Counted from the first letter of the stretch, positions 11,646-13,284 are shown. The stretch: DNA of 64,000 bases from Leptogorgia sarmentosa (GCA_964658305.1 OZ210885.1:19654001-19718000); one strand, 5' to 3'. Made by a program: numbers and translations. The notes: generated from the letters alone by a model not told the origin.

Positions 11646-11726
11646 TTATAACAACACATCGTGAGAAATCCATTGTGTAAAATGAAATAAAAGTACTATG
11701 CGTTCGGGTTTAAATACAGTAAACCG

Positions 11727-11886
11727 TCGAAAAACGCACGTAAATAACCGCATGTTAATAACCGCATGTTAATAACCGCACGTAAATAACGGCACGTAAA
11801 AAAACGCACGTAAATAACCCCATGTAAATAACCGCATGTAAATAACCGCATGTAAATAACCGCATGTAAATAACCGCATGTAAATA
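11727..11886. repeat. Tandem array of 14-bp units TAAATAACCGCATG (10 full plus partial copies) between divergent genes
   Basis: Units read directly from 11741 to 11880; TATTTAA at ~11889 and CAGT before ATG 11925. Confidence 0.95.
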
Positions 11887-11924
11887 CCTATTTAAGAACA
11901 AACGTAACAGCAGTTACACACAAA

Positions 11925-12455
11925 ATGAATATCGTTGGAATAATCGACTTGGATGGTTTTTCCGTGCAGAAAACCTTTTTCTGCCGGGAATTAGGTCTCA
12001 TCACACACAGAGACACATATGGAATGTCTTTCCACTTCAAGACACCGCTTTGTTATGAAAAACTAAACAAAAAGGACAAGATCCAGGTGAAATTTTTGCA
12101 AGAACATATACATGGTTTATCATTAACAGATGAAAATGCGTTGGATCCTGATATGGTCGACATCATCGTTAAGAAATTCTACAATGCTTATCGTCTAAAC
12201 GAAAACAGTGTACTTGCTTACAAAGGAGGATCCTTTGAAAGAACTCTACTTTCAAGATTAAACATACCGTCACTCGACCTAGAACTCTTTGGGTGTCCAA
12301 AAGCCATAGAAATTTTCGATGAAATGCCGTGGTTAGAGTGCTGTGGTCAGCACTCATTACTCAAAAACAATAAAAATACTTACAAACACTGCCCGCGCGT
12401 TGAAGTGGAAGCTTTCTTAAATTGGTTTACGAAATATTGGATGCCTAAATACTAA
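11925..12455 (+). CDS. DEDD/RNase T-fold, Maelstrom-like nuclease
   Basis: IIDLDGF...FFCRELG, HIHGL, LAYKGG..E, DLE..GCPK, CCGQH...HC..VEV; intact 176 aa. Confidence 0.65.
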   Translation: MNIVGIIDLDGFSVQKTFFCRELGLITHRDTYGMSFHFKTPLCYEKLNKKDKIQVKFLQEHIHGLSLTDENALDPDMVDIIVKKFYNAYRLNENSVLAYKGGSFERTLLSRLNIPSLDLELFGCPKAIEIFDEMPWLECCGQHSLLKNNKNTYKHCPRVEVEAFLNWFTKYWMPKY

Positions 12456-12621
12456 ATCTTTGTACGGAAAAACCATCCAAATCGATTGTAAATACGGTTA
12501 TATGAATAAAACAGTTTATAAAACACATGTTGTTCTTTATTTATACAAACACCCTACGAGCATACACATCATAACTGCAAATAAATCAAGCAAATCGGAG
12601 CTCGTTAGCCCCGAAAACATC

Positions 12622-12738
12622 ATGAAATTGCCCTGTGTTATACTTAAAGTCCTCATTCTGATGTGGTTGATGATCGCTAGTGCAAATGGTTTCATAGACC
12701 TCTGTAACCCGGGAAATTGTCGAAAAATTCGCGGATAA
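12622..12738 (+). CDS. 38-aa secreted peptide precursor: signal peptide + FIDLCNPGNCRKIR-G
   Basis: MK, hydrophobic core, A-N-G cleavage motif, two Cys, terminal Gly; AATAAA at ~12742. Confidence 0.6.
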   Translation: MKLPCVILKVLILMWLMIASANGFIDLCNPGNCRKIRG

Positions 12739-12820
12739 AACAATAAACGCATAAAAATTACATTGTAAATAAAATATTTATTGTTATTAAAACACATTTT
12801 ACTATGTACATTAATGTATA

Positions 12821-12893
12821 CCCGCGGTAGTTCAATCGGTAGAACGTCGGATTGTAGCTCCGGATGTTGGTGGTTCGAGTCCATCACGTGGGA
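12821..12893 (+). tRNA. trnY: Intronless tRNA-Tyr(GUA) inside the Polinton
   Basis: Cloverleaf CCCGCGG-TA-GTTC/GAAC-TCGGA[TTGTAGC]TCCGG-ATGTT-GGTGG[TTCGAGT]CCATC-ACGTGGG-A. Anticodon GTA at 12854-12856, C1:G72, A73, A and B boxes, TTTT at 12899-12902. One G-A mismatch in the acceptor stem. Confidence 0.85.
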
Positions 12894-12974
12894 TTCTCTT
12901 TTCCACGTCGCCCGCAACACCTGACACCTAAATAGGGGGTGTGAAATCCTTTAAAAAGGGGGTGTGGGAACCAA

Positions 12975-13284
12975 AAAATATCCCTCACACAATCCCACGC
13001 AATATCCCCCACCCACACCACGTGATATCCCCCACGCATTATCCCCCACCCCACGCAATATTCCCCACGCATTATCCCCCACCCCACGCAATATTCCCCA
13101 CGCATTATTCCCCACCCCACGCAATATCCCCCACGCATTATCCCCCAGCCCACGCAATATCCCCACGCAAAACCCCACGCCCACGCAATATCCCCACGCA
13201 ATATCCCCACCCAAAACCCCACGCAAAACATAAAATCCCACACGTTGTGTGGGATCGGCGCTGAAGTGCCCGTATAGTACTACT
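12975..13284. repeat. Polinton terminal repeat region: ~33-bp C-rich units and ACTACT terminus
   Basis: About 4 copies of CCCCACGCATTATCCCCCACCCCACGCAATAT plus degenerate copies. ACTACT at 13279-13284 is followed by candidate 6-bp TSD AATGTG. Confidence 0.8.

Follow-up and report, generated by a model that had tools for sequence, protein, structure and literature searches.

A predicted DEDDh-type exoribonuclease gene and an intronless tRNA-Tyr gene at the end of a Polinton in Leptogorgia sarmentosa: a loose terminal cassette that may act on host RNA

One end of a Polinton was analyzed in a stretch of 64,000 nucleotides from Leptogorgia sarmentosa (GCA_964658305.1 OZ210885.1:19654001-19718000), called the window throughout; positions are counted from its first letter. 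A preliminary description of this DNA had placed a tandem array, a nuclease-like open reading frame (ORF), a signal-peptide ORF and a tRNA gene just inside the ACTACT terminus, and all four were found there. The three genes share one orientation and carry no interruption. The features are as follows.

11735-11886, plus strand: 14-bp tandem array (period 14, 10.9 copies, 90% matches, TRF score 234)
11925-12455, plus strand: nuclease ORF, 176 amino acids, predicted DEDDh fold with an ECHC zinc-type motif
11942-11968, plus strand: 5' arm of an inverted repeat, 27 nt, within nuclease codons 6-15
12461-12487, plus strand: 3' arm of the inverted repeat, in the 3' untranslated region (UTR) of the nuclease, upstream of AATAAA at 12505
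12622-12738, plus strand: peptide ORF, 38 amino acids, hydrophobic N-terminus, likely secreted
12821-12893, plus strand: tRNA-Tyr(GTA) gene, intronless (ARAGORN; Rfam RF00005)
12979-13284, no strand: C-rich terminal repeat block (repeats at 12979-13244) with the ACTACT end (13279-13284), likely the right terminal inverted repeat (TIR) of the Polinton

The Polinton core genes sit to the left of these terminal parts. Marks of a Polinton in the window were matches to rve and chromo and a weak match to Peptidase_C5, and the core genes match the same genes of relatives by tblastn; their names (PW, PZ, pX-like and so on) are labels which we presume to apply. Compared with the ORFs of a relative, the major capsid protein (MCP) gene is split over three frames with two stops and the integrase gene over two frames. 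PZ has one in-frame stop, and the long frame of the fibre, judged from the window alone, has its first ATG only within the collagen part. The contrast drawn earlier between intact terminal and broken core genes is right for MCP, integrase and PZ and extends to the fibre in that an early in-frame ATG is missing, but PW, the protease, the pX-like gene and the penton gene are unbroken as well. Since four of the eight core ORFs are thus intact, the intactness of the short terminal genes says little, and the caveat already attached to this argument was justified. PolB and a packaging ATPase were not found in window 1-14000, the left part of which is occupied by a reverse transcriptase ORF. No partner for the ACTACT end and no left TIR were found inside the 64-kb window.

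Contigs of four runs (X1, X4, X5, X6; two studies, two organism labels), of which X1 may be the window's own sample, were aligned to 9000-14500. The four runs yielded 675, 465, 191 and 237 contig pieces, with identities in all bands from below 90% to above 99%. The summed depth in X1, which is not to be equated with copy number, was 200-2400 across the element versus 78-140 at 13416-13967, a step that fits the ACTACT boundary. Flank DNA from 13285 on was seen joined to other sequence, and no contig piece among those listed covers the whole module. The terminal parts are covered by hundreds of diverged contig pieces, which come from two studies and carry two organism labels; this supports the membership of these parts in a many-copy Polinton rather than a one-off capture.

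For the nuclease, 27 homologues of 36-89% identity were obtained with a single-sequence search and 196 with a profile search. Motifs were counted in 106 family sequences of at least 160 amino acids. Catalytic-type residues are kept almost throughout (D8 in 102, D/E10 in 103, E105 in 104, H155 in 106 and E160 in 105), and so are the ECHC residues (E22 in 102, C140 in 106, H143 in 104, C156 in 106). A further near-invariant histidine, H63, is present in 104/106 members; the second motif residue is D in the window nuclease and E in 76/106. The AlphaFold2 (AF2) model (pLDDT 84) retrieved arenavirus nucleoprotein (NP) exonuclease domains at Foldseek PDB ranks 1, 2 and 5 (E 2-5e-4). With VIA, Lassa NP 382-544 reached Z 11.3 with a root mean square deviation of 3.6 over 144 residues, and DnaQ-like fold matches in general reached Z 10-12 over 140-155 residues. 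No PDB sequence match and no Pfam or PHROG match was found for the nuclease.

The likeness to the C-terminal exonuclease of arenavirus NP (Lassa NP, PDB 4gv9 and 4g9z; LCMV, 4o6h) thus comprises a common DEDDh fold, aligned end to end to 382-544, and acidic/His catalytic residues and E-C-H-C in the same order (PMC4408791). In contrast to arenavirus NP, the nuclease is a stand-alone 176-amino acid gene of a double-stranded DNA (dsDNA) element, known from sequence, with 15-19% identity and D as second motif residue. With the MAEL domain (Pfam PF13017; Entamoeba EHI_192630) it has in common the ECHC-type residues and the extra invariant histidine, H63. DEDD and ECHC together were reported to mark Lassa NP and the active MAEL of amoebae, with DEDD lost in animal Maelstrom (PMC4408791); among the DnaQ-like structures compared in PMC7968707, the zinc finger occurs only in arenavirus exonuclease (ExoN) and MAEL. 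The 176-amino acid ORF is therefore predicted to be a DEDDh-fold 3'-5' exoribonuclease of the arenavirus NP/protist MAEL type. The earlier label "Maelstrom-like" is apt for the conserved ECHC zinc motif, but not for the retained DEDD, which follows the arenavirus/protist type, and 0/81 family members matched Pfam Maelstrom at E<=0.05. The nuclease also has no HMG box. Solved MAEL structures were absent among the fold-search matches listed (Foldseek, VIA), which does not exclude structural likeness, and a Maelstrom cluster of the ESM Atlas scored 0.87 against the nuclease, which we take as a lead only.

The best structure matches in a viral library included a protein of Drosophila-associated adintovirus 2 (E 5e-8) as well as ichnovirus ORFs, all unannotated. 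The nuclease domain also forms the C-terminus of a 1022-amino acid low-complexity ORF (L002:7664-10732) on a 496-kb viral contig. An identical length (1022 amino acids) was found for the top structure match in the viral library.

Distant relatives were collected with a wide alignment against metagenome contigs, and the best 80 of 117 nuclease loci (32-41% identity) were retained. Scans of viral_contigs with P0001 and A1, and of metagenome_contigs with the close alignment A2, gave no relatives; the same was true for viral_contigs scanned with a tRNA-Tyr pattern and with a mini-intron pattern. A scan with the penton gave one weak locus, L001, without a tRNA. Polinton core genes were present at many of the 80 loci, including PolB in L010, L030 and L046. 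The preliminary description had proposed the ratio of nonsynonymous to synonymous substitution (dN/dS) as a check. In pairwise comparisons of uninterrupted natural copies (120, 38 and 34 pairs with dS>0.1) the medians for the nuclease in the three largest relative clusters were 0.17, 0.17 and 0.28, so the nuclease is under purifying selection in relatives.

A nuclease of this fold might also do housekeeping for the element, i.e. 3' trimming of polymerase III (Pol III) RNAs in the manner of RNase T, work on replication intermediates or shut-off of host mRNA, rather than hide double-stranded RNA (dsRNA). Scores close to those of arenavirus NP are reached by RNase T, RNase AS, oligoribonuclease, DnaQ and TREX1; in L046 and L010 the gene and PolB are arranged head to head; and tRNA genes adjoin the gene. 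Against this stand the near-invariant ECHC-type residues, as such a zinc finger is confined to arenavirus ExoN and MAEL in the comparison of PMC7968707. Homologues in ichnoviruses and on the viral contig L002 also speak against it, because they suggest a portable host-interaction function. We regard housekeeping as quite improbable.

The tRNA-Tyr(GTA) gene was the only tRNA gene detected by ARAGORN in the 64-kb window. RF00005 (56.9 bits, E 7e-11) was the sole Rfam match at E<=1 in 10500-14000. The gene comprises 73 nt. It has C1-G72 and A73, its A and B boxes are internal, its D, anticodon and T arms are good, and CCA is not encoded. C1-G72/A73 are identity marks of tRNA-Tyr. Four T residues follow at 12899-12902, six bases downstream, and because this T-run lies so close there is no room for a miRNA hairpin. 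Adenovirus virus-associated (VA) RNAs and the tRNA-like TMERs of gammaherpesviruses are likewise Pol III genes of DNA viruses, with tRNA-type internal promoters. VA RNA is a hairpin RNA of ~160 nt, and no Rfam match to it was obtained at E<=1 in 10500-14000. Animal tRNA-Tyr genes typically carry an intron after position 37 and need splicing. The intron is missing here, unlike in the animal type; the comparison is with this general rule and with the spliced tRNA-Tyr genes of mouse (PMC4090602).

Among the copies, the D-stem pair 11-24 changed on both sides together in all four runs (depths of the two sides: X5 19.3/19.3, X4 69/75, X1 762/815, X6 15/24); the tRNA-Tyr copies thus show compensatory stem changes. 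Variant copies with different acceptor stems still start with CCC, end with GGGA, keep C1-G72/A73 and are followed by a T-run. One contig carries two tRNA genes in tandem.

In the relatives, Rfam yielded 29 tRNA matches in 22/80 loci, which one ARAGORN-only gene raised to 30 in 23/80; intron-spanning ARAGORN calls at a relaxed threshold (L004, L024, L028, L030 Val) were spurious and had been dropped before counting. A zone of up to 1.3 kb downstream of the nuclease, holding 19% of the bases, contained 27 of the 30 genes. The tRNA-bearing loci fell into 7 of 24 clusters (80% nucleotide identity), and as the largest cluster supplies about half of the matches, these are not independent. The types found were initiator tRNA-Met (iMet), Ala, Val, His, Trp, Arg, Met and Asn, in addition to the TCA-loop tRNA-like genes described below, and against the full model most element tRNAs scored 54-70 bits. 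The iMet gene of the largest cluster was 98% identical over 28 pairs, versus 72% and 63% in the 72-nt flanks, at a nuclease dS of 0.44. Ala genes kept G3.U70 in 5/5 copies. Purifying selection on tRNA genes in relatives was shown, as was their repeated location between the nuclease and the terminus. Some Arg-type copies have decayed anticodons (ACA, ATG). The tRNA lies inside the terminus in the window and in at least L010, L030, L051, L052 and L059, for which reason host tRNA genes as integration targets were rejected at these six loci.

The 14-bp array is directly followed by a TATA-like TATTTAA and the ATG of the nuclease. It holds 8 GTAAATA hexa/heptamer sites, one per unit, which we take to resemble a forkhead-type site. 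Its size differs between copies, with a joint reaching back 65 nt. The array likely serves as promoter or enhancer, a reading from motif and position that gains support because relatives carry arrays upstream of the nuclease: a tandem array was found within 600 bp upstream in 13/65 relatives, with units different from the 14-bp unit.

A feature unmentioned in the preliminary description, and new here, is an antisense arm in the nuclease 3' UTR. Just past the stop codon, 12461-12487 is 93% complementary to codons 6-15 (11942-11968), and an RNA helix of ~30 bp is predicted to close the whole nuclease coding region (z -8.4, 0/20 shuffles as good). Its 3' arm stops 17 nt upstream of AATAAA at 12505. 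In none of the four runs do most copies share the single mismatch of the window helix. Other copies also cover the 3' arm, where the 40 rows listed include one variant row.

In the peptide the hydrophobic N-terminus (9-residue mean hydropathy up to 3.1) is signal-like and is followed by GFI-x2-C-x-P-x2-C-x-K. Since the remainder of the window yields ~0.6 hydrophobic short ORFs per 1.3 kb by chance, separate support was required. An HMMER scan gave three matches, two of them true homologues (58% and 63%); the third, P0163, was a repetitive chance match and was dropped. Together with cluster members and a follow-up search, seven homologue sequences of 62-83 amino acids were assembled, compared with which the window form (38 amino acids) is the shortest. 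Six aligned peptides share 13 invariant columns, including K9, W15, G23-F24-I25, C28, P30, C33 and K35. Four of the seven contigs with peptide homologues are equal in size (2078, 2544, 1404, 1272) to contigs with nuclease homologues from the same source, so that both genes likely adjoin one another there, as indirectly indicated by these sizes. Among window-family copies the 3' end of the ORF varies; three listed indel rows within the ORF keep the frame in net, and 8 rows lie just upstream of the ATG. The peptide had no usable match in the Atlas, no Pfam match and no match at any distant nuclease locus. Signal-peptide-like ORFs behind distant nucleases (27/61 loci) were rejected as its counterparts, being at chance level, and an oxytocin-like ring was rejected because the cysteine spacing varies (C-x4-C and C-x3-C). 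Baculovirus conotoxin-like peptides show a six-cysteine knottin pattern. The earlier likening to such peptides does not hold, as only two conserved cysteines follow the signal part. From its conserved columns and layout, the peptide is likely a real small secreted protein of the window lineage.

The terminal genes are better described as a loose, exchangeable cassette than as the fixed four-part module of the preliminary description. tRNA genes do recur beside the nuclease in Polintons, but most distant relatives have no tRNA there, none matches the peptide, and array units differ; anticodon, array unit and peptide change between families. One could argue that the parts are unrelated host fragments, captured by chance near the end and drifting neutrally, as terminal gene content differs between families, Arg-type anticodons are decayed and the element copy in the window is dead. 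This explanation is largely refuted, and we give it hardly any credit: dN/dS lies far below 1, the tRNA is conserved well above its flanks, its changes are compensatory, the arrangement recurs in 7 clusters, and the peptide family has invariant residues. Capture at a single locus, named at the outset as what would overturn the module, is contradicted by the diverged copies that cover the parts and by the purifying selection on the nuclease in relatives.

With reasonable though limited confidence, we propose that the exchangeable terminal cassette acts on host RNA, with the nuclease directed against dsRNA sensing and silencing and the tRNA securing translation; such elements would likely bring their own kit for steering the RNA of the host cell. 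The 14-bp array would drive early nuclease expression from host transcription factors, and by trimming RNA that is double-stranded or structured, the enzyme would dampen both RNA sensing and silencing. The element tRNA, made by Pol III, would bypass host tRNA splicing and top up a pool depleted by stress or defence. In this lineage, the 3' UTR antisense arm could turn the nuclease mRNA into a substrate or into a folded, poorly translated message, and thereby limit the dose. Interference with silencing, support of translation and signalling, attributed to the cassette from the beginning, are what we infer, in the case of nuclease and tRNA from homology and selection.

We are aware that a number of observations weigh against this proposal. 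In VIA, the scores of DinG, DnaQ, TREX1 and RNase T lie within ~1 Z unit of that of Lassa NP, and because of these ties the substrate is not given by the fold alone; the residue roles are assigned by sequence position rather than by residue-level structural alignment. The acceptor stem of tRNA-Tyr has an unpaired position, common to most copies. No anticodon change occurred among the 40 variant rows listed, which leave 48 rows uncovered, and the tyrosine content of the element ORFs is ordinary (100/2171 codons). In the relatives, the tRNA enrichment counts near-copies, many from one sample series; of the 49 loci that extend at least 1 kb downstream, 36 lack a tRNA in the zone; and tRNA occurrence is scattered over the nuclease tree (13 changes on a quick tree only). 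The Ala genes, at 94% versus 88% and 72% in the flanks, are barely above one flank. The iMet genes have U1.U72 (L052, L056, L059-L061, L064, L075, L078; L063 is cut), the usual initiator pair being A1-U72, and could represent an initiator mimic. A Val-TAC gene (L046:10921-10993, minus strand) has the body of the Ala-TGC genes, has lost G3 and shows an irregular acceptor stem; a clean switch of identity from Ala to Val was rejected for it, since the anticodon change was accompanied by the loss of G3, but pairing of the stem requires a bulge. For the peptide, 5/10 listed substitutions were synonymous versus 25% expected (p 0.08). Finally, no antisense arm was found in 79 distant relatives (best score 28.5 versus 52.5 in the window, shuffle maxima 20-33). 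The arm is a lineage-specific trait, reflecting either autoregulation or a fixed replication accident.

The ends of the relatives also hold, at the position of the tRNA genes, tRNA-derived genes unfit to serve as normal tRNAs. In 14 loci, among them L051:7578-7690, L052:11978-12095 and L066:5405-5501, a Pol III-type gene with A box, B box and T-run lies just inside the TIR and carries in its middle a ~45-nt mimic of a spliceosomal intron, in which 5' splice site, CTAA branch motif and CAG are invariant and the spacers vary. The RNA is a candidate spliceosome decoy. TCA-loop tRNA-like genes were located by the TIR in L010:8902-8974, L030:465-537, L054:71-142 and L071:11470-11532; their D arm is weak or missing, and they contain branch-like and 5'-splice-like motifs. 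The state of this arm disfavours their use as UGA suppressors. The TIRs of L010, L030, L051 and L052 are built from CAAGATGGCG, which is presumably YY1-like, and telomere-like TTAGGG units.

The non-standard genes bear on another explanation, in which tRNA genes are kept as Pol III units, be it as VA-RNA-like decoys or as TFIIIC-bound boundaries that protect the termini against heterochromatin; the shape of the tRNA would then be kept only for transcription, processing and stability. That the same position holds tRNA-derived genes of the mini-intron (14 loci) and TCA-loop (L010, L030, L054, L071) types agrees with it, as do the variation of anticodons between families, the U1.U72 of the iMet type and the finding that in yeast an intronless tRNA gene can insulate and its intron-containing form cannot (PMC4090602). 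By contrast, the scores of 54-70 bits that most element tRNAs reach extend over the full model, and the iMet gene is 98% conserved along its whole length, beyond the A and B boxes. The usual isotype identity rules for Tyr, Ala and initiator tRNAs apply as well: C1-G72/A73 of Tyr, G3.U70 in 5/5 Ala genes and the initiator-type T loop are kept. We consider retention as Pol III units unlikely, and a tRNA shape preserved for transcription, processing and stability equally so.

Canonical histone-type stem-loops with ACCA-like ends and a purine-rich downstream element (HDE) were observed behind Polinton genes in 18 loci (L003, L046, L051-L053, L056, L060, L061, L063, L064, L066-L068, L075, L078, L080-L082), and in 9 of these loci the stem-loop follows the nuclease match at 26-45 nt; 7 Rfam Histone3 matches were obtained among the relatives, and the window has no histone-type stem-loop. 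The sequences suggest SLBP/U7-type, non-polyadenylated mRNA ends. These ends and the mini-intron Pol III gene are new here and belong to the relatives only. A wider and distinctly tentative idea, which we put forward as possible yet doubtful, is that animal Polintons of this group run a take-over of host RNA from their ends, with exoribonuclease, special mRNA 3' ends, own tRNAs and Pol III RNAs that soak up the spliceosome. The exoribonuclease would attack dsRNA or host transcripts. Own messages would be protected or timed by histone stem-loop and HDE in one clade, or by the self-closing 30-bp helix in the window. Own tRNAs would bypass splicing or cleavage of host tRNAs, and Pol III RNAs displaying 5' splice site, branch point and 3' splice site might bind spliceosome parts and so favour intron-free viral genes.

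Outside subscription journals, Repbase reports and supplementary figures, we found no report of animal Polintons with a nuclease of the MAEL type, with tRNA genes or with histone stem-loops. Stony-coral polintoviruses (PMC11131425) and adintoviruses (PMC8502044) have the same core genes, and collagen-like and exonuclease genes were described as low-frequency accessories in the former (PMC11131425). The main texts of both papers, supplementary figures aside, mention neither Maelstrom nor DEDD, and that of PMC11131425 no tRNA; neither text reports a nuclease of this type or tRNA genes for animal elements. In polinton-like viruses (PLVs) as well as virophages, 558 tRNAs and 6 histone stem-loops were reported from 8300 genomes, the six histone matches all from Paulinella at 25-29 bits, and codon compensation or countering of tRNA depletion was proposed for the tRNAs (PMC12220804); tRNAs are also flagged in non-animal MELD viruses (PMC8502044). 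The likeness to these lies in tRNA genes within small dsDNA elements of the same realm. As far as these reports go, PLVs and virophages are of protist or environmental origin, whereas here the host is an animal, the Tyr gene is intronless and the tRNA is linked to a nuclease at the terminus.

Animal genomes commonly harbour Polintons, but little is known about how these handle RNA-based defence and take over cells. A stand-alone nuclease with DEDD and ECHC in a dsDNA element would extend a type for which the papers considered name only arenaviruses and protist MAEL, and would bear on where arenaviruses obtained theirs. An arms race over tRNA depletion has been described for human SAMD9 (PMC10246899); selected, element-borne tRNAs in animal Polintons open such a race to testing in invertebrates. 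Further co-option of host RNA processing is suggested by two features of the relatives, the histone-type mRNA ends and the mini-intron Pol III gene.

A few neighbouring genes were recorded in addition. In L046, accessory protein kinase and GRF zinc-finger genes (12719-13426, 15357-16616) lie beyond the tRNA cluster. In the window, two accessory ORFs on the minus strand (11073-11645 and 10785-10919), both without Pfam or PHROG match, are divergent from the array, and the first has a CxxC pair. The reverse transcriptase ORF to the left of the Polinton remnant (3-1286, plus strand) presumably belongs to a non-LTR element.

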